Positions 1,657 to 52,548 of a stretch of 64,000 nt of DNA are shown piece after piece (positions within the stretch are counted from its first letter, which is position 1; each line of letters starts with the position of its first letter). Source of the DNA: Candidatus Acidiferrales bacterium. Lineage in GTDB: Bacteria; Acidobacteriota; Terriglobia; Acidiferrales; UBA7541. The notes below the pieces were generated by a model. It ran no database searches and was not told the DNA's origin. It saw nothing but the letters and a program-made list of their open reading frames with translations. The stretch spans positions 7,834 to 71,833 of the forward strand of contig JBEKHG010000021.1 of NCBI GenBank assembly GCA_050012395.1, given 5' to 3'. The position numbers were made by a program, and so were the translations under genes.

Positions 1657-2310
1657 GTGGGGCTTCGCGTGAAAGATGCGCTTCGCTTCGGCTGCGTGAC
1701 ATGTCTGTTGCTCGTCAGCACCACAGGCTTGCGCCTGGTTCCGCGCGGCCATCCGGTGCCGCTCCGCAGCGACTTTGAATCGTTCCCGTACGAGGTAGGG
1801 AACTGGTCGGGAACAGATCTCCCCGATCTTGATTCGAAGACGAAGGATGCGCTCCGCGCTGACAATTATCTCCTGCGACGCTACTCCAACCAGGTCGTTC
1901 AAACAGATCTGCTTGCGGCTTATTACAAGTCCCAAGAAAGTGGAGATACCATCCACGACCCGCGGAACTGTTACCCAGGTGCGGGCTGGGAGCAAGTTTC
2001 GTTAAGTGTCGTGCAGATTCCGAATCCCGAAATTCCCGAAGGATCTTTCCCGGTCAATCATTTTGTCGTAGAGAAGGACGGAGTCAAGCAAGACGTTCTG
2101 TACTGGTATCAAGGCCATGGCCGGGCCTACGCCAGCCCATACCTGGGGAAAATATACCTTGTTTGGGACGGAATCAGGAAAGGCCGTACGGACGGCGCGC
2201 TGATTCGACTTTCAGCAGTCCGAGCTTCCGAAAACGATCAGCCGTTTCCGGCCATGGCGGGGTTCGCGCAAGATCTATCTTCCGTTTTGCCGCAGTTCCT
2301 GCCGAACTGA
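1657..2310 (+). CDS. EpsI-family (exosortase-associated) protein
   Basis: N-terminal TM segment. The motif DTIHDPRNCYPGAGWE matches the EpsI signature (HSPxxCLPGxGW-like). The overall length of about 215 aa fits. Confidence 0.7.
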   Translation: MGLRVKDALRFGCVTCLLLVSTTGLRLVPRGHPVPLRSDFESFPYEVGNWSGTDLPDLDSKTKDALRADNYLLRRYSNQVVQTDLLAAYYKSQESGDTIHDPRNCYPGAGWEQVSLSVVQIPNPEIPEGSFPVNHFVVEKDGVKQDVLYWYQGHGRAYASPYLGKIYLVWDGIRKGRTDGALIRLSAVRASENDQPFPAMAGFAQDLSSVLPQFLPN

Positions 2311-6582: not shown

Positions 6583-6617
6583 AACACGAAGTACAGGTTA
6601 AGTATTGGGTGAACTTG

Positions 6618-6648
6618 TCCGGTAATCCGACTAATCAGGAGTCGACCG
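6618..6648 (+). repeat. two-tier hairpin element, copy A
   Basis: Sequence TCCGGTAATCCGACTAATCAGGAGTCGACCG. Outer stem 6620-6623/6645-6648, inner stem 6628-6632/6640-6644, loop AATCAGG. Lies 23 nt before ATG 6671. Confidence 0.75.
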
Positions 6649-6670: not shown

Positions 6671-7507
6671 ATGAGTAACAAGAAGGTCTGGTTTATCACT
6701 GGTGCCGGCCGTGGCATGGGCGTTGACTTCGCCAAGGCCGCCCTTGCGACTGGTCACGCAGTTGTGGCTTCCGGCCGGGATAGGGATCGCGTGTCCGATG
6801 CCTTGGGGCAGTCGGACGACTTACTGGCCGTCAAGCTGGACGTCACTAGCCGCCCCGATGCCGAGGCGGCGGTGCGGGCCGCGGTCGACCGATTCGGCCG
6901 GATCGACGTGCTGGTGAACAATGCTGCTAGCTTCTACGCGGGCTACTTTGAGGAGCTGACGCCGGAGCAGATGGAGCGACAGTTGGCGACGAGCCTCATT
7001 GGCCCAATGAACGTCACTCGCGCCATCCTGCCGGTCATGCGCAAACAGCGCTCGGGGCACATCATCTCAATTTCGTCGTCAGCAGGCCTCGTCGGCTTCG
7101 AGTTCTGTACCGCGTATGCCGCGTCGAAGTTTGGGCTGGAAGGTTGGGCGGAGTCGCTGCAGTTCGAGGTCGCGCCGTTCGGCATCGCCACAACGATCGT
7201 CAACCCAGGGTTCTTCCGCACGGAACTTCTCACGGAGCAGTCAACGAACTACGCCCGGCCGTCCATCAAGGATTACGACGAGCGCAGAGCGAAGCAGCTC
7301 CAATTTTGGAAATCCCAGAATGGCCGGCAAACCGGCGACCCGGCGAAACTCGCGCGAGCGCTGATCATCGTTGCGAGTCAGGAACCGCCGCCGCGCCGCT
7401 TTATCGCCGGCGCCGATGCCATTGCCACCGCGGAACAGAAAGTCGCCGATCTGAAGGCGCAGATCGGCGCAAACCGGGACCTCTCTACGTCCCTCGCCTT
7501 CGACTGA
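6671..7507 (+). CDS. SDR-family oxidoreductase
   Basis: N-terminal VWFITGAGRGMG (TGxxxGxG), NNAA, and the S...YxxxK catalytic pattern (YAASKFGLEG). Confidence 0.9.
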   Translation: MSNKKVWFITGAGRGMGVDFAKAALATGHAVVASGRDRDRVSDALGQSDDLLAVKLDVTSRPDAEAAVRAAVDRFGRIDVLVNNAASFYAGYFEELTPEQMERQLATSLIGPMNVTRAILPVMRKQRSGHIISISSSAGLVGFEFCTAYAASKFGLEGWAESLQFEVAPFGIATTIVNPGFFRTELLTEQSTNYARPSIKDYDERRAKQLQFWKSQNGRQTGDPAKLARALIIVASQEPPPRRFIAGADAIATAEQKVADLKAQIGANRDLSTSLAFD

Positions 7508-20381: not shown

Positions 20382-20885
20382 TCACGAAATCGGGACGCGC
20401 TTCACGCCCGCAAAAATTTTGTCGAGGAGTTGCGTGTGCCCGCTCTCGTCGAGCACCAGAACCAGTTTGAGATTCTCCACGTAAACCGCTTCGAGCGTAT
20501 AGTTTCCCGGCCCCTGTCCGTGCCTTACCAAAAGGGCGCTGTGTCCCTGGTCGCGAACCGGGGTTGGCGGGATAGGTTTAGACTCCACCACGACCTCACT
20601 CCCTTCCCGGCGGAACATCACCAATTTCATGCCGTCTTCGAGTGTCTTTACCACCACGGTGTAATCGCCGGGCTCCAATTTGTGCATGTGGCACTGTACT
20701 TTATACGGCAAGGAGAACTTTCCCTCGAACTCCGTCTTCGCGGATAGCGCCTCGATGCGCGCCATATTGTCGGCCTTGTATTGATCCGGGGCGGTTTCCA
20801 CCTGCGCATGAGTGGTGATCGGGAAGAGAACTGCAAACGCCAGACCTAGTGTCGTCCACGTAATTTTCGTCATTCTCTTTTTCAT
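20382..20885 (-). CDS. hypothetical secreted protein
   Basis: GGAGG RBS before ATG 20885. Signal peptide ends ...ITTHAQ. No family recognised. Confidence 0.55.
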   Translation of the reverse strand: MKKRMTKITWTTLGLAFAVLFPITTHAQVETAPDQYKADNMARIEALSAKTEFEGKFSLPYKVQCHMHKLEPGDYTVVVKTLEDGMKLVMFRREGSEVVVESKPIPPTPVRDQGHSALLVRHGQGPGNYTLEAVYVENLKLVLVLDESGHTQLLDKIFAGVKRVPIS

Positions 20886-21218
20886 CGGAACCTCCATTCC
20901 TCCGCCACTTCGTGGCCTCTTCCCCAAGCTCGACTAATTTGTCTCGCGGGCTCGACTAATCATCGTCCTGAGAGCCCTGCATGCGACTTGGGCGGCCGCG
21001 GGTCTCGCCGATTCGCCGGAGGGTCGATCCCGCGTTCGCCGAGGCGGCGGTCTCTCTGCCGCGAGTTTTCTTTTCCGCCGGCCGTGTCACTCTTGGCCGA
21101 AATATTACTCCCGATCGCAAGAATCAGCAACGAACAGCGGTTTCAGTTTGAGATGTTCTTCCCTCTGGCACGGAAGGATTTCTTTTACGAAGCTCCATTG
21201 ATTTGGAAAATCTTTGCT

Positions 21219-22496
21219 CTAAATTTTCAGCAACCAGCGATATTCGCGCAGGAAGAGCACGGCTATACCGAGAAGCACCAGCGCTAAAGTGAGCACGGTC
21301 AGCCGGCGTGTCAATGCAGGGTTCTTCGCCCGGCGCTGAATGATCGGCAGATTGATCAGCGCGCTAGCAAGGGACGCAAGCACCACTCCCGTTCCCGCCA
21401 ATCCTGGCTGCAATTGTCCGTTTACAACCATGTTGGCCGCTGCTGCAGTGGTGCTAGCGCTGCTTACCAACCCGCCCAAAATGCTAATGCCAAGAAAGCC
21501 AAATTTGCCCAGGTGGCGCTCGCCGAGCGTGGAGACGACCTGGATCAACAAGAACAGTCCAGCAAAATTCAGTACGTGTCCGAGCGAAACAGGCGACTCA
21601 AGATGTATTTCCGCCGGGGTGTCCGCGGCGCGCGCACGCGAGCGGCGAACGAGCATGAGCGCCCCGAGGGCCATGACCAGCAAAGGCGCGGCGGCAACAC
21701 CAACCGCGGACGGCGAAAAAATCGCCAGAATTACAAGATTCCGCGCAAACATAGCCACAATCGTGAGCAACAGCGCCGCAACCGCCACGCCGGAGGGCGT
21801 GCTACCGGCACCCAGCGGCCGGGCCAATTCAGCAGCCGCAGCGGTGCTATTAACCAGCCCGCCCAGAAATCCGCTTACATAGATACCGCGGGTGCCATAA
21901 AGCTTCAGCAGGACGTAGTTGGCGAACCCGATCCCCGCGATCACAATCACGATTACCCAGGCGGCGCGAGGATTGATCAGTTGCCACGGATCCACGAAGC
22001 GATTCGGTATAATTGGATAGATTACAAAGCCGAGCAGGCCAAGCAATACCGCGCTGCGAATTTCCTCCAACGTGAGCCCACCAGCGAATTTCCGCAGTTC
22101 CAGCTTCCAAGCAAGCAACATGGTAATGATTATTGCCGAGGCCACCGGAGTGAAAACGTGGCCGCTTCCGACTAGATATCCGGCAGCGAATACCAATAAC
22201 ACGGCCATGGAGGTGGTCAATTCAAGGGGGCGAGCGGAAAGAAAATTTTTGACGTCGGAGGCAGCGATCAGCAGCAAGACGCCGACAAAAGCGATGCAAG
22301 CAAGCGGTACCGGAAGATGCGCGCTTAGCATTCCCAGGACCGAAACAAATGCAAAACTGCGCAGGCCGAAATCTTTGTTAGCCCACTCGCGCTCAATGCC
22401 GACGAGCATTCCAATGCACAACGACGCGGCGAGTTGCACTGCCACGATCGGAGTCGGAATCCTGAAAGCTGGCGTGTAGGGCTGCTGCCAAAGCAT
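21219..22496 (-). CDS. MgtC/SapB-family plus DUF4010 membrane protein
   Basis: N-terminal LCIGMLVGIEREW (MgtC motif) is followed by about 10 further TM helices, typical of the fused DUF4010 architecture. Confidence 0.8.
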   Translation of the reverse strand: MLWQQPYTPAFRIPTPIVAVQLAASLCIGMLVGIEREWANKDFGLRSFAFVSVLGMLSAHLPVPLACIAFVGVLLLIAASDVKNFLSARPLELTTSMAVLLVFAAGYLVGSGHVFTPVASAIIITMLLAWKLELRKFAGGLTLEEIRSAVLLGLLGFVIYPIIPNRFVDPWQLINPRAAWVIVIVIAGIGFANYVLLKLYGTRGIYVSGFLGGLVNSTAAAAELARPLGAGSTPSGVAVAALLLTIVAMFARNLVILAIFSPSAVGVAAAPLLVMALGALMLVRRSRARAADTPAEIHLESPVSLGHVLNFAGLFLLIQVVSTLGERHLGKFGFLGISILGGLVSSASTTAAAANMVVNGQLQPGLAGTGVVLASLASALINLPIIQRRAKNPALTRRLTVLTLALVLLGIAVLFLREYRWLLKI

Positions 22497-22603
22497 CGCC
22501 GTAGTATACGACTGGTGTGTGTGAAGGTTGCGGCAGAAATTCGCCAGCCCGCCCCAGTGCCTGATAATCGGAAAACCGGGCAGTGGAGGCAGCGCTTTAT
22601 TTC

Positions 22604-22639
22604 TCCGGCAAGCGCACTTAATCAGGCGTGTACTGCCGG
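22604..22639 (+). repeat. two-tier hairpin element, copy I
   Basis: Sequence TCCGGCAAGCGCACTTAATCAGGCGTGTACTGCCGG. Outer stem CCGGCA/TGCCGG (6 bp), inner stem GCAC/GTGT. The loop contains TAATCAGG. 20/25 to the family consensus with one indel. Confidence 0.65.
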
Positions 22640-22725
22640 TTAATATTCCCAGGAATCCATTCGCGACCCAATTGTATTAATATGTGCGCGGATTTGCTGG
22701 GGCGACCGAGGTAAGGAGAAAGACT

Positions 22726-23304
22726 ATGAAGCGCAAAATAACGCAAGCGGCGGGATTGGTTGCAGCGTTTGTTGCGGGCATGGTGGTGGCAACCGCGTTG
22801 GGTGGGGGAGTGACTGCGGGAGGAGCGAGGACGCCGACGGCAGCGATGCAACAGCAGCAACAGCAACTTACCGTGGAGAGGGTTATTAGCCCAACGGTGA
22901 CGGACGAGGACATCGCATTGCTGCGCCGAGATATTCGGGCAACGAAAATGCAGGTCATCGGGCAGAATATGTCGCTTTCTGATGAGGAGGCGCAGAAGTT
23001 CTGGCCGGTCTACAACCATTACACCAAGGACCTGGTGGAGGTGAACAACCAGAAGTATGCACTGTTGAAGCAGTACGCCGAGATGTGGGCGACGATGACA
23101 GATCAGGATGCATTGATTTACGTGCGGCACTGGTTGGAGGCGGATGGAGATGCGCAGGCGCTGCGCTTAAGGTATGTGCCGGTCGTGAGCCAGGTGTTAC
23201 CGGGAAGGAAGGCGGCGACGTTTTTTCAGTTGGACCGGCGGCTGAACATGATCATCGATCTGCAATTGTTTTCGCAGATCCCGCTGGCGCACGTGAAGCA
23301 GTAG
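22726..23304 (+). CDS. hypothetical exported protein
   Basis: AAGGAGAA RBS before ATG 22726. N-terminal TM/signal segment, a poly-Q run, and a helical remainder. Confidence 0.6.
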   Translation: MKRKITQAAGLVAAFVAGMVVATALGGGVTAGGARTPTAAMQQQQQQLTVERVISPTVTDEDIALLRRDIRATKMQVIGQNMSLSDEEAQKFWPVYNHYTKDLVEVNNQKYALLKQYAEMWATMTDQDALIYVRHWLEADGDAQALRLRYVPVVSQVLPGRKAATFFQLDRRLNMIIDLQLFSQIPLAHVKQ

Positions 23305-38139: not shown

Positions 38140-38496
38140 ATGGCAACCGACGCTTCGATAGGTGCGCGCACACTAACGCTGGAAACGTACGCCTGGGAGG
38201 ACGCCACCGTCGTCGGCTGCACCGGCCGCCTCACCACGGAAACCGCGGTCCAGCTGAAAACGGAAGTGAAAGCGCTAATCCTGTGCAAGCGAAAAGTAAT
38301 TCTGGACTTGACCGACCTCGCGCACATGGATAGCTCCGGCCTGGGCGCGCTGGTGGCGCTTTATATTTCAGCGAAAGGCGCGAAGTGCCAGTTGCAATTG
38401 GTGAATTTGAGTCCACGCATCCGCGATCTCCTCAGTTTGACGAACGTCCTCTCCGTTTTCGAAGAGTGCGGCCGCTGCGGCACCCGTATGCCGTAA
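38140..38496 (+). CDS. STAS-domain anti-sigma-factor antagonist (SpoIIAA/RsbV-like)
   Basis: LDLTDLAHMDSSGLGALVAL carries the conserved phosphorylatable Ser context. 118 aa. Confidence 0.85.
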   Translation: MATDASIGARTLTLETYAWEDATVVGCTGRLTTETAVQLKTEVKALILCKRKVILDLTDLAHMDSSGLGALVALYISAKGAKCQLQLVNLSPRIRDLLSLTNVLSVFEECGRCGTRMP

Positions 38497-38765
38497 AATT
38501 CTGCTCGCCCGCCCCGACCCTCCCAAGGGCAGTGGGTCAGTTTCCGGTTATCCGTGCGGGTTCAAAGGGTCGGTGCAACACTTGCGCGCAGTTTACTCGC
38601 TGGAGTCTGAAAGCCGAGAGTTTATCGCGGGCGTTGATTTAGGCGCAGCGCGATGTTGTCCACCTTCGATCTCAGCGTTCGCCATTCGGAAAACAACTGT
38701 TTTCGGAGAACCCGACAGCAAGAATTGCGCAAACCGGCAAGCTAGAATGTGTAGAAATTCACTTT

Positions 38766-38803
38766 TCCGGTAATCCGGCTAATCAGGACTTAGCCGAGAC
38801 CGG
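38766..38803 (+). repeat. two-tier hairpin element, copy B
   Basis: Sequence TCCGGTAATCCGGCTAATCAGGACTTAGCCGAGACCGG. Outer stem CCGGT/ACCGG, inner stem CGGCTAA/TTAGCCG. CTCTTTTT follows. Confidence 0.75.
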
Positions 38804-38815
38804 CTCTTTTTCGCG

Positions 38816-39334
38816 CTAGTCGTTCGGAACCAAGTAGCCCTGGACGGTGCTAGCTCCGGTAGAGCTACTGGCAAGTGAGTCTGCAAGCGTCACTCCCGAG
38901 CCAACCCGGAAACCCGTTACGTAGTGCTCGTGCGCATAAGCCTCACCGATTTGGTTAGCTTGGGCGAGACTGCCGTTAAATAACCCTCCTTTGGGATTGG
39001 AAAGGACATCGCCGATAAGGCCTGTGTTCCCGGAAGGGGGGGCTTGCCATTCATAGTCAGTCACAATCAGCGTGAAGCCTTTGGGGACTACATAGGGGGT
39101 AGACTCTTCGATATTCCCTTCGGCGTCGATCTCAGAGCAGTAAGCTTTGCCCTCTAAACAATGCAATGAGACCAGTTGGCTCTCGTGCTGGCCTACGTGC
39201 GTGGTGTTGCCGGGGACAATCTGCACCAGCGTCGCCGCCACGGCGCGTGCCCTGTTGGGTGCGACGAACGCTACGATTACCGCAAGGACAACCATAGCTC
39301 CCAAAATTCCCAATGTCTCTTTCAATAGCCGCAT
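38816..39334 (-). CDS. novel membrane-anchored beta-rich protein, paralog a
   Basis: AAGGAGAA RBS before ATG 39334. TM helix followed by AVAATLVQIV, two Cys, VVPKGFTLIVTDYE, and a C-terminal GYLVPND. Paralogous to 39643-40173. Confidence 0.7.
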   Translation of the reverse strand: MRLLKETLGILGAMVVLAVIVAFVAPNRARAVAATLVQIVPGNTTHVGQHESQLVSLHCLEGKAYCSEIDAEGNIEESTPYVVPKGFTLIVTDYEWQAPPSGNTGLIGDVLSNPKGGLFNGSLAQANQIGEAYAHEHYVTGFRVGSGVTLADSLASSSTGASTVQGYLVPND

Positions 39335-39547
39335 GTGCTTTCTCCTTTTCGTCAGTGACTTCTTGTGGCTGCGTCGGTTCATGCATGAGCACTATCCCGA
39401 CGCTTGTATCGCTGCCCTATCTATGTAAACGGAAACGGCGGGCAAAAGACGACAGGCTGGCGAAAAAATTTATTGGGGCCAGATATGTCGGACCTAAGTC
39501 CTGATAAACGCAATAACCGGACAAGCAAAGTTCTAGTGCGTGACTTT

Positions 39548-39581
39548 TCCGGTTATCCGACTAATCGGGAGTTAAACCGGA
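39548..39581 (+). repeat. two-tier hairpin element, copy C
   Basis: Sequence TCCGGTTATCCGACTAATCGGGAGTTAAACCGGA. 7-bp outer stem TCCGGTT/AACCGGA, inner stem GACT/AGTT, loop AATCGGG. Lies 61 nt upstream of ATG 39643. Confidence 0.75.
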
Positions 39582-39642
39582 ATATTCGTTTGTCCTCGGA
39601 GGCGACAGTAGTAAGCTTCATCCGAAAGGGAGGACCATAATC

Positions 39643-40173
39643 ATGATGCGATTAGCGAAAAACCTATTGATGGCCGTAGGCGCCGTGGTGCTGGCAGCGA
39701 TACTGCTTAGCGTGATGGCTCCGAAAGCCGTGCATGCCGTTGCGGCAACGATGGTGCAAGTGGTCAACACCATCTCGAGCCCGGTGCCCTCCGAAGACAT
39801 TTACCGCCTGCCTGCCAGAAACATTCAATTGGTTTGCAACGCTTCTGTCAACAATTGCGCCATAGCGGAGCAGAATGGCACCTTCGACGCGTCCACTCCC
39901 TGGAAAGTGCCGAGCGGAATGGATTTCATCGTCACGGATATAGAGATCACTACCGACGGCACAGGGTCCACAATTCAGACCGCCTTCAACCTGGAATGGA
40001 CGCCCACCGGCGGAAAATTGACAGGGTTCGGCTGGCAGGTGCTCAACAACGGTGTGACCGCGGAGTATCAGTTCACCAACGGAATTGTAATTCTAACTGG
40101 ATCCACGCCAACTCCAGTTTTCGGAGCAAGCGTCAACTTCACAACCATTCGTGGCTATCTGACGCCAAACTGA
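39643..40173 (+). CDS. novel membrane-anchored beta-rich protein, paralog b
   Basis: AAGGGAGG RBS. TM helix followed by AVAATMVQVV, two Cys, KVPSGMDFIVTDIE, and a C-terminal GYLTPN. Confidence 0.7.
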   Translation: MMRLAKNLLMAVGAVVLAAILLSVMAPKAVHAVAATMVQVVNTISSPVPSEDIYRLPARNIQLVCNASVNNCAIAEQNGTFDASTPWKVPSGMDFIVTDIEITTDGTGSTIQTAFNLEWTPTGGKLTGFGWQVLNNGVTAEYQFTNGIVILTGSTPTPVFGASVNFTTIRGYLTPN

Positions 40174-40210
40174 ACTTGGTAACTGAGCTATCTAATACTG
40201 TTCGAAGATG

Positions 40211-40235
40211 TCCGGTAATCGGACTAATCAGGCAA
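40211..40235 (+). repeat. hairpin-element family, copy D (5' part conserved)
   Basis: TCCGGTAATCGGACTAATCAGGCAA is 20/25 to the consensus. I found no good closing stem. Confidence 0.55.
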
Positions 40236-41562: not shown

Positions 41563-41922
41563 TTAGTCGGGTGTGATCCCGAGAAATTCGTCGTGGCCCT
41601 CGAGCATTGGCGCCAGATTGGACATCAGGAACAGGTCGACAATTCGCTGATGGGCGTTGACGATCTTCAACTTGGATTTTGCTTTCTTCGCGCTTACCCA
41701 AAAGCCTACAAGCGTCCCCAGCCCCGAACTGTCCAGGAAACCTACGTTGGTAAGATCAATCACGACAGTCTTGGCCTCGGTAATCAGGGGACGGACGGTG
41801 CTCTTGAGCATTTCGGCTGTGCCGGAAGTGATTCGGCCCGAACAATGAACGATTGCTTCCGTTGGGGTCGTTTCGACTTCGATCTTCATATCAGGCGAAG
41901 GAACAGCGCCGGTGAGAGACAT
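41563..41922 (-). CDS. STAS-domain anti-sigma-factor antagonist, second paralog
   Basis: GGAGG RBS before ATG 41922. IDLTNVGFLDSSGLGTLVGF. Inverted relative to 38140-38496. Confidence 0.85.
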   Translation of the reverse strand: MSLTGAVPSPDMKIEVETTPTEAIVHCSGRITSGTAEMLKSTVRPLITEAKTVVIDLTNVGFLDSSGLGTLVGFWVSAKKAKSKLKIVNAHQRIVDLFLMSNLAPMLEGHDEFLGITPD

Positions 41923-52160: not shown

Positions 52161-52241
52161 TATTCAAACCCCCATCAAAATTTTCAGTTCCAGTTTTTGT
52201 TGAAGCTTGCCGTAGAAATGAAACTACTAGGCCAGGACTCG

Positions 52242-52266
52242 TCCGCCAATCTGACTAGCCCGGAGT
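52242..52266 (+). repeat. hairpin-element family, copy F (diverged)
   Basis: TCCGCCAATCTGACTAGCCCGGAGT is 19/25 to the consensus. Intergenic, between two minus-strand genes. Confidence 0.45.
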
Positions 52267-52548
52267 TGTCGTCGATTTACAAATTTGTTCCAGTCTGGCT
52301 GTCGAGGATTATGCTAGGGAATTGTCAAAAGTGACAGTGTCCGATTCGCGCGCGTACCGGACAAGTAAGACCCTTCTTCGCGAATGTCCGCGCATTTGCC
52401 GGGAGTGGGACCAGAGAGTGGAGAATTTCTGGCCGATAGCGGCTCCAGCGACGGGATGGATGGGCGCCGCTACGCAAGAAACTTCCACGTCGAGCGCGTA
52501 GCCCGTTTTCTCGCGCGAGCTAGATCGGATACGCAACGCGTGTTTTTG

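Follow-up and report, generated by a model that had tools for sequence, protein, structure and literature searches.

A co-oriented ~85-nt hairpin element that delimits single-gene units in Acidobacteriota genomes, possibly an attC-like recombination site

A 64,000-nt stretch of a Candidatus Acidiferrales genome (GenBank assembly GCA_050012395.1, contig JBEKHG010000021.1, positions 7,834 to 71,833 of the forward strand; hereafter the window) contains several copies of an intergenic repeat, which was analyzed in the window and in related loci of other genomes. The repeat is an imperfect palindrome of about 85 nt. It represents a real family without a description in Rfam or in the literature searched, and its copies delimit single-gene units in co-oriented arrays. 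We tentatively suggest, with a probability of roughly 0.4, that the element is a site at which integron-like cassette arrays without an integrase recombine, that it acts as folded DNA (hairpin or cruciform), and that its recombinase would be encoded elsewhere. The strongest competing reading is an element of the repetitive extragenic palindromic (REP) or REPIN type; readings as an RNA, as a miniature inverted-repeat transposable element (MITE) or as an architectural site are less likely.

Structure and distribution of the element

The family came to attention through a 25-nt core, TCCGGTAATCCGACTAATCAGGAGT, which the initial annotation of the window had described as recurring in intergenic DNA. 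Both points were borne out. A scan of the window allowing up to three mismatches found the core on the + strand at 6618, 38766 and 39548 (0-2 mismatches; none expected from 100 shuffles), a shorter pattern added a fourth copy at 40211, and all four are intergenic. A real family had thus been seen, but its anatomy had been mis-drawn. The annotation had proposed a two-tier hairpin of 31-38 nt formed by the core and its downstream flank. Among 140 family members, the core with 22 nt of downstream sequence folds at -9.8 kcal/mol, compared with -10.2 kcal/mol for a shuffled flank (p=0.97), whereas upstream sequence plus core folds better than its control (p=1e-8). That hairpin was rejected because the partner arm of the core lies upstream and the real downstream flanks fold like shuffled ones. 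The AATCRGG stretch assigned to its apical loop is part of the outer stem of the 85-nt hairpin, and the compensatory stem changes claimed for it compare bases of non-homologous flanks.

When 144 instances were lined up and 57 full copies aligned, the core proved to be the 3' arm of the ~85-nt imperfect palindrome, with the consensus yAAsTCCTGATTAACGCGCtAACCGGACAAGT-(12-20 nt apex)-ACTTGTCCGGTTATCCGACTAATCAGGAGTTrg. The arms are imperfect inverted repeats of ~40 nt each; they differ by a conserved 7-nt block and are therefore not simple inverted copies. The outer stem, (T/G)CCTGATTA / TAATCAGGA (also given as CCTGATTA / TAATCAGG), leads to an asymmetric, conserved internal loop, ACGCGCT on the left and ATCCGAC on the right, which has a CG/CG mini-helix of 2 bp in its middle, followed by the inner stem AACCGGACAAGT / ACTTGTCCGGTT and by a variable, usually paired apex. 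Folded one at a time, most copies form one long hairpin with a minimum free energy (MFE) of -20 to -46 kcal/mol. RNAalifold applied to a MAFFT alignment gave only a trivial 3-bp helix because the apex was misaligned, and per-sequence folds with an explicit structure were used instead. In 59 full copies that had not been chosen by the fetch pattern, the loop bases (AACGC, CGACT) are conserved as highly as the stems, which points to sequence-specific recognition of the element by a protein.

Covariation, claimed earlier for the short hairpin, is modest on the long one. Among 57 copies 80% of the cells pair, no better than in shuffles. Among 150 covariance model (CM) matches 79.1% of the cells are paired, compared with 76.6% in shuffles, and 219 cells have changed on both sides, compared with 154±10 (none of 500 shuffles reached 219), in an alignment that was fitted to the model, includes some reverse-strand images and consequently leans toward structure. 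Permutation tests of single pairs placed covariation close to the apex and at the pairs 7-79 and 8-78, and none beyond.

Searched in one genome per species, the exact pattern CCGGTWATCSGRCTAATCRGG occurs in at least 117 loci, nearly all of them in metagenome-assembled genomes (MAGs) of Acidobacteriota; the host groups are Terriglobia, Acidiferrales/Acidoferrum, Sulfotelmatobacter, Terracidiphilus and Bryobacterales. Loci fetched around the pattern matches, including contiguous 8-kb pieces, are cited below by L-numbers (L001 and following), and together with the window they amount to 0.92 Mb. In this set a profile hidden Markov model (HMM) recognized 359 distinct sites, 147 of them full, 95 with the right arm only and 45 with the left arm only, and the covariance model census gave 178 matches. 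No match to the element was found in plasmids, phages or 2.9 million viral contigs. Rfam yielded no match in the window at the gathering threshold, and on two well-preserved copies only chance-level matches at E<=10.

Regarding matches outside the phylum, those in Glaesserella, Pseudonocardiaceae and Chloroflexia MAGs (loci L055, L063 and L076) are bare 21-mer variants without flanks and are attributed to chance. MAGs labeled Binatus, Verrucomicrobiae and Actinomycetota carry full elements and one labeled Chthoniobacterales a near-full copy (loci L014, L085, L104 and L113), which points to mislabeling, mis-binning or horizontal transfer.

Arrays, mosaic boundaries and insertion sequences

Neighboring sites are co-oriented in 160 cases and opposed in seven, with a median gap of 1.07 kb over all neighbors (interquartile range 0.63-2.05 kb). 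Three arrays extend over 24-40 kb (CAVVZY010000010.1, 672-712 kb; CAWIRJ010000001.1, 1528-1552 kb; CAWIRJ010000002.1, 160-184 kb), and most of their intergenic gaps hold one element. In 26 array loci, for which the calls of open reading frames (ORFs) are crude, 77 of 120 units (64%) contain exactly one ORF, and the median unit measures 760 nt. The cargo consists of unrelated stand-alone genes, among them those for an S41 peptidase, TonB, RibD_C, cupin, MacB/FtsX, SpoIIE and an amidohydrolase.

The genes around the copies are convergent, divergent and tandem in 28, 25 and 49 cases, respectively, which equals the random expectation; the orientation of the element to both neighbors is likewise random over 131 instances, and the copies have no preference for gene 3' ends or for convergent genes. 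A link of orientation to replication was considered and rejected, the GC skew of the element strand being positive in 49 loci, negative in 58 and near zero inside arrays. Among 119 full copies, no direct repeat of 2-6 nt that could represent a target-site duplication exceeded the background at any boundary offset.

When loci of different genomes are compared, their homology stops within an element in 13.5% of cases, as opposed to 2.2% for random positions, an excess that is partly expected from the intergenic position of the elements. Together with the delimitation of single-gene units in co-oriented arrays, this supports the earlier suggestion that the repeat marks module boundaries. For example, L010 (3760-5125) and L032 (167-1534) share an 88%-identical unit with elements at both sides, and beyond this unit no further homology of at least 250 nt was detected between the two loci. 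Three neighboring genes of the window, 20382-20927, 21219-22496 (MgtC/DUF4010) and 22684-23304, have their homologues in different loci of different genomes, some of them in arrays. A search for recurrent neighbor gene families returned only families of insertion sequences (ISs) and common acidobacterial paralogs, and no tRNA genes were found as integration anchors.

Elements of the IS110, IS30 and IS91 families insert in the repeat at fixed points, which explains many of the half copies. An IS110-family element (351 aa) with subterminal repeats is inserted between ..CACTTG and TCCGG.., a second IS110 type is also found inserted in the element, and IS30-family insertions lie at profile positions 18/19 or 67/68. 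Peaks of breakpoints at these two positions had been considered as crossover points and proved to be IS30-family insertion junctions. The ends of the insertion sequences that adjoin half copies are their own and differ from those of the element. Intact IS30-family copies with a 389-aa transposase are present in L002, L028, L045 and other loci. Copies of the IS110-family element were located in L028 (6300-7830), L029 (255-1700) and L030 (3260-4730), each at the same insertion point; they encode a transposase of 344-351 aa, carry the subterminal inverted repeats AACAATGTCGGCTC / GAGCCGACATTGTT and have a non-coding 3' end of ~240 nt. We regard it as a candidate for a bridge-RNA-guided IS whose natural target is defined. 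In L048 (3390-5474) an IS91-family transposase gene (396 aa) lies directly downstream of that for a 297-aa tyrosine recombinase, and the pair abuts a fragment of the element; the recombinase shows an identity of 33% to IntI1 over its full length and is ~40 residues shorter than IntI1.

An attC-like site weighed against its rivals

From the co-orientation, the unit size, the one gene per unit and the mosaic boundaries of the arrays we infer a recombination mechanism and an enzyme. The two stems would serve as recombinase-binding arms that flank an unpaired spacer of 5-7 nt, the geometry of a tyrosine-recombinase core site, and the asymmetric bubble would fix strand and polarity. Circular single-gene units would recombine site by site into existing arrays, a process that would produce local co-orientation. 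We place the recombinase elsewhere in the genome, as the visible array ends yielded none.

An attC cluster without an integrase is called a CALIN, and elements of the IS110/IS1111 type have been reported to target attC sites as well as REPs. The element shares with integron attC sites and CALINs the co-oriented arrays of ~0.6-1.4 kb units, mostly with one unrelated ORF each, and with attC sites the IS110/IS1111-type targeting and the lack of a target-site duplication. It is likewise an imperfect palindrome of 80-90 nt, within the attC range of 55-140 nt, with two paired boxes, an unpaired spacer and a variable apex, and its 3' end is close to GTTRRRY (GTTRRsC-like). The acidobacterial attC consensus is GCCUAAC-AAcuC-GUUgAAGCg...cGCUUAAc-UCGagC-GUUAGGC, with an invariant AAC/GUU that is ~99.7% conserved (PMC8352920, supplement 3). 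Written as ysyyAAs-TCCTG-ATTAACGCG...CGACTAAT-CAGGA-GTTrrsC, the element has the same 7+5+8 / 8+5+7 spacing as this model. A further point for the attC-like reading comes from peat metagenomes, where IntegronFinder detects no attC on 97.4% of the contigs that carry an integron-type integrase (bioRxiv 10.1101/2025.02.12.637893).

Several observations weigh against an attC-like site. The AAC/GTT that is invariant in attC is conserved in the element at only 82, 60 and 31% (A, A and C) and 60, 82 and 91% (G, T and T), and a regular expression for the canonical acidobacterial attC had no matches in the 0.92 Mb. Cross-cassette complementarity of R' and R'' is absent, with 1.17 (next) and 1.27 (own) of 4 positions matching, compared with 1.32 for random pairs. 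The base-proximal spacer of the element is fully paired and its bubble lies further in, unlike in attC. The ORFs of the arrays are oriented at random, 60 with the elements and 57 opposite to them, whereas those of attC cassettes mostly have the orientation of their sites. Genomes carry several arrays as well as many scattered solitary copies, as in the window, and the sequence of the element, almost invariant across species, is not that of the canonical acidobacterial attC consensus. Covariation on the long hairpin is only modest, and G.T and A.C mismatches (88 and 81, respectively) do not tell which strand folds, or whether the folding is one of RNA. Ordinary homologous recombination between the 85-nt repeats could also produce the mosaic boundaries.

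Regarding the enzyme, tblastn with IntI1 (a query 100% identical to the database IntI1) found no integron integrase in the window and the 117 loci, and only four weak tyrosine-recombinase matches, one of them IS91-associated. A classical integron was rejected: no intI was found, the match in L048 is the 297-aa recombinase with the IS91 transposase, and that in L117 is a small phage-type integrase. A protein search with IntI1 returned only relatives of at least 74% identity and so could not reach acidobacterial integrases. No integrase was found at the visible array ends of L035 and L068 or at that of the window mini-array described below. That no intI or attI platform was found at these three ends sets the arrays apart from complete integrons; arrays of the CALIN type are still compatible with it. 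The folded single-stranded attP of the CTX phage and the integrative mobile elements exploiting Xer (IMEX) offer a further parallel, in which, as proposed for the element, hairpin arms flank an unpaired center and mimic a tyrosine-recombinase core site, a host recombinase acts in trans, and tandem co-oriented integration is possible. Unlike them, the element shows no resemblance to dif arms, lacks a phage context (no viral-contig matches) and delimits units that are single genes.

According to the main rival, which we consider somewhat unlikely, the repeat is a REP/REPIN-like non-autonomous element: its arms would be inverted REP-type units forming a single-stranded DNA (ssDNA) hairpin, its half copies would be decayed singlets, and a single-copy HUH Y1 enzyme elsewhere (RAYT, TIRYT or class 3 TnpA) would copy it. 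A REP-like extragenic palindrome family, one of the roles suggested in the initial annotation, is right in kind, the element being a high-copy extragenic palindrome that insertion sequences target. Like REP/REPIN elements and bacterial interspersed mosaic elements (BIMEs), it is doublet-like with singlet remnants and is a hot spot for insertions of IS110-family and other ISs, and its enzyme would act in trans. Insertions at fixed points, seen here for IS110, IS30 and IS91 elements, have also been reported for REPs, and the lack of a target-site duplication is expected for HUH or ssDNA mechanisms. On the bottom strand a CGGA, which is a CnGA, precedes the inner hairpin, a lead read from the consensus. 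Acidobacteria have been reported with Y1 genes (class 3 TnpA-Y1) and high-copy 'CnGA-foot' hairpins (PMC6006769) and with TIRYTs (PMC3733652). Such 'CnGA-foot' hairpins number roughly 600 in Solibacter usitatus Ellin6076. Some members of the present family come from Bryobacterales MAGs. No HUH-Y1 gene, however, was detected in the 0.92 Mb by tblastn with sequences of the E. coli RAYT and the IS608 TnpA or by a six-frame HUH...Y motif scan, and opposed element pairs, examined as possible REPtrons, have no Y1 gene between them. A GTAG-type foot (GT[AG]G) is missing at both ends, in the consensus as well as in the per-position counts, and the 7-nt block by which the arms differ does not fit simple inverted units. 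Neither gene 3' ends nor convergent genes are preferred, and orientation is independent of GC skew, a dependence that insertion into lagging-strand ssDNA would predict. The strict co-orientation at a median gap of ~1 kb, mostly with one ORF per unit in the array loci, also speaks against this rival; to our knowledge such ordered spacing has not been described for REP, BIME or REPIN clusters.

A stationary architectural or regulatory site is improbable. Here a conserved host protein (nucleoid-associated, gyrase- or IHF-like, or an insulator) would bind the hairpin or cruciform, and selection would maintain the copies. The near invariance of loop and stem sequences across many species is what a conserved protein partner would lead one to expect, the position is strictly intergenic whatever the gene arrangement, and no mobilizing enzyme was found nearby; this reading does not account for the co-orientation, for the arrays of unrelated accessory genes in which copies cluster, for gene units being shuffled among genomes or for the many decayed copies. 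It is more improbable still that the repeat acts after transcription as a folded cis-acting or small RNA (5' leader, terminator, stabilizer or sRNA), although the predicted hairpin is stable, some covariation exists near the apex and five copies in the window are located 24-124 nt ahead of + strand genes. A 5' leader or terminator was rejected on the gene-context statistics given above, and with it the structured 5' leader or RNA hairpin of the initial annotation: orientation to both neighbors is random, also inside arrays, the neighboring genes are functionally unrelated, G.U pairs are not in excess over A.C, and Rfam gave no match at the gathering or the relaxed threshold. The imperfect inverted repeats formed by the ~40-nt arms would suit a MITE, that is, two joined terminal inverted repeats of a DDE transposon. 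This reading is close to refuted by the missing target-site duplication and by the lack of any longer element with the same ends, the adjacent insertion sequences ending differently; nor would a MITE be expected to show the 160:7 co-orientation.

If the attC-like reading is extended, Terriglobia would carry a second, non-canonical cassette system, in which single genes in either orientation, with their own promoters, are exchanged via an 85-nt asymmetric hairpin site by an enzyme acting in trans, either a divergent IntI- or Xer-like tyrosine recombinase or a new one. We regard this extension as doubtful. If true, it would give multiple integrase-less arrays per genome, and it could explain some of the integron-type integrases of peat and soil metagenomes for which current models detect no attC.

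In many soils and peatlands Acidobacteriota are the dominant bacteria, and little is understood of the gene flux in their large genomes, which are rich in paralogs. Through a conserved site at the borders of hundreds of single accessory genes, in co-oriented arrays and in many species, one could approach the assembly of these genomes and the exchange of genes between them. Should the site be attC-like and missed by current integron models, cassette arrays of soil bacteria are being undercounted; a REPIN-like population, on the other hand, would be unusual in its order. On either reading the 21-mer and the covariance model are a ready metagenome probe, and the element marks homing points of IS110/bridge-RNA-type, IS30 and IS91 elements.

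Copies in the window and neighboring genes

Window copies were scored with the profile HMM (nhmmer) and with a covariance model (R1) of the long hairpin. The window holds few members of the family, and most of them have decayed: copy C is intact, copy I is a diverged full copy, and the others, A, B, D and F, are either partial or decayed. Copy C (39492-39579, + strand, core 39548-39572) is the only intact full-length element, with left arm, apex and right arm, and scored 79.5 bits with CM R1 (E 1.5e-20) and 73.5 bits with nhmmer, at a long-hairpin MFE of -27.9 kcal/mol. Upstream of it, copy B (38711-38797, + strand) yielded 40.5 bits with nhmmer (hit 38727-38795, HMM positions 19-85) and 23.7 bits with the CM; its outer left arm is missing or degenerate. 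Downstream, copy D (40200-40233, + strand, core 40211-40235) is a right arm only (nhmmer 23.6 bits, HMM positions 45-78) and marginal as a global CM match (12.6 bits, E 0.3), and its left-arm region is degenerate and overlaps the end of the coding sequence 39643-40173.

Copies B, C and D form a two-unit mini-array that holds two divergent paralogs, one gene per unit: 38816-39382 (- strand; gene call on the identical contig L118) between B and C, and 39643-40173 (+ strand) between C and D. The two share an identity of 31% (E 5e-20), each has an N-terminal hydrophobic segment, and neither belongs to a Pfam family. The mini-array is flanked by the STAS-domain (anti-sigma antagonist-like) genes 38140-38496 (+ strand) and 41563-41922 (- strand). 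In another genome a SpoIIE/PP2C phosphatase is an array unit (L004, 4739-5743), and partner-switching components thus appear as stand-alone units.

Just before copy B, positions 38536-38554 (+ strand) hold a fragment of the element that comprises the apex and the right arm up to ..CCGGTTATCCG and ends at profile position 67 (nhmmer, HMM positions 49-67). It breaks off at an IS30-family terminus of which a remnant is left (38555 to ~38655; inverted repeat TGCGGGTTCAAAGGGTCGGTGCAACAC...). Over 86-123 nt this remnant is 86-91% identical to the termini of the IS30-family copies in L002 and L028; ~15 other loci share the junction, with an IS30-type inverted repeat after ..ATCCG. Of the partial cores of the initial annotation, this fragment (there 38543-38554) proved genuine, and those at 2354, 20948, 45484 and 49691 are not significant by the profile.

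Copy A (6593-6647, + strand, core 6618-6642) consists of apex and right arm, the left arm being lost (nhmmer 39 bits, HMM positions 30-85; CM 18.6 bits); it ends 24 nt before the SDR gene at 6671 and is also present in a locus of a related MAG (L111, 97% identical). Copy I (22550-22634) is full-length, diverged and on the - strand, where it scored 25-26 bits (CM 25), compared with 12-15 bits on the + strand, which contradicts the earlier statement that all copies lie on the + strand. It sits between the divergent genes 21219-22496 (- strand) and 22684-23304 (+ strand), and together with the MgtC gene it forms a unit with an 83%-identical counterpart inside an array in L006/L057. Copy F (52205-52269, + strand), listed in the initial annotation, persists as a marginal, decayed right arm (nhmmer 11 bits, E 0.013). 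A decayed left-half copy that had been missed lies nearby at 52335-52390 (+ strand; nhmmer 19.1 bits, HMM positions 4-59, E 4e-5).

Just upstream of the ribosome-binding site of gene 20382-20927 (- strand), the window has an insertion of ~105 nt (20931-21035) relative to the homologous region of L067. It contains GACTAAT twice and a GGGCTC/GAGCCC hairpin; the repeat profile does not recognize it, and it may represent a small element of another kind. An unrelated repeat was seen in L067 at ~1960-2200 (reverse strand), downstream of the homologue of 20382-20927, as two tandem units of ~85 nt (..cctgcggggaccaaatc.gaagt..ttgccgaggagcggacacgt..). The GC skew is positive across nearly all of the window, 1-64000 (mean +0.037, cumulative skew rising), which places the window within a single replichore and makes the + strand the probable leading strand.

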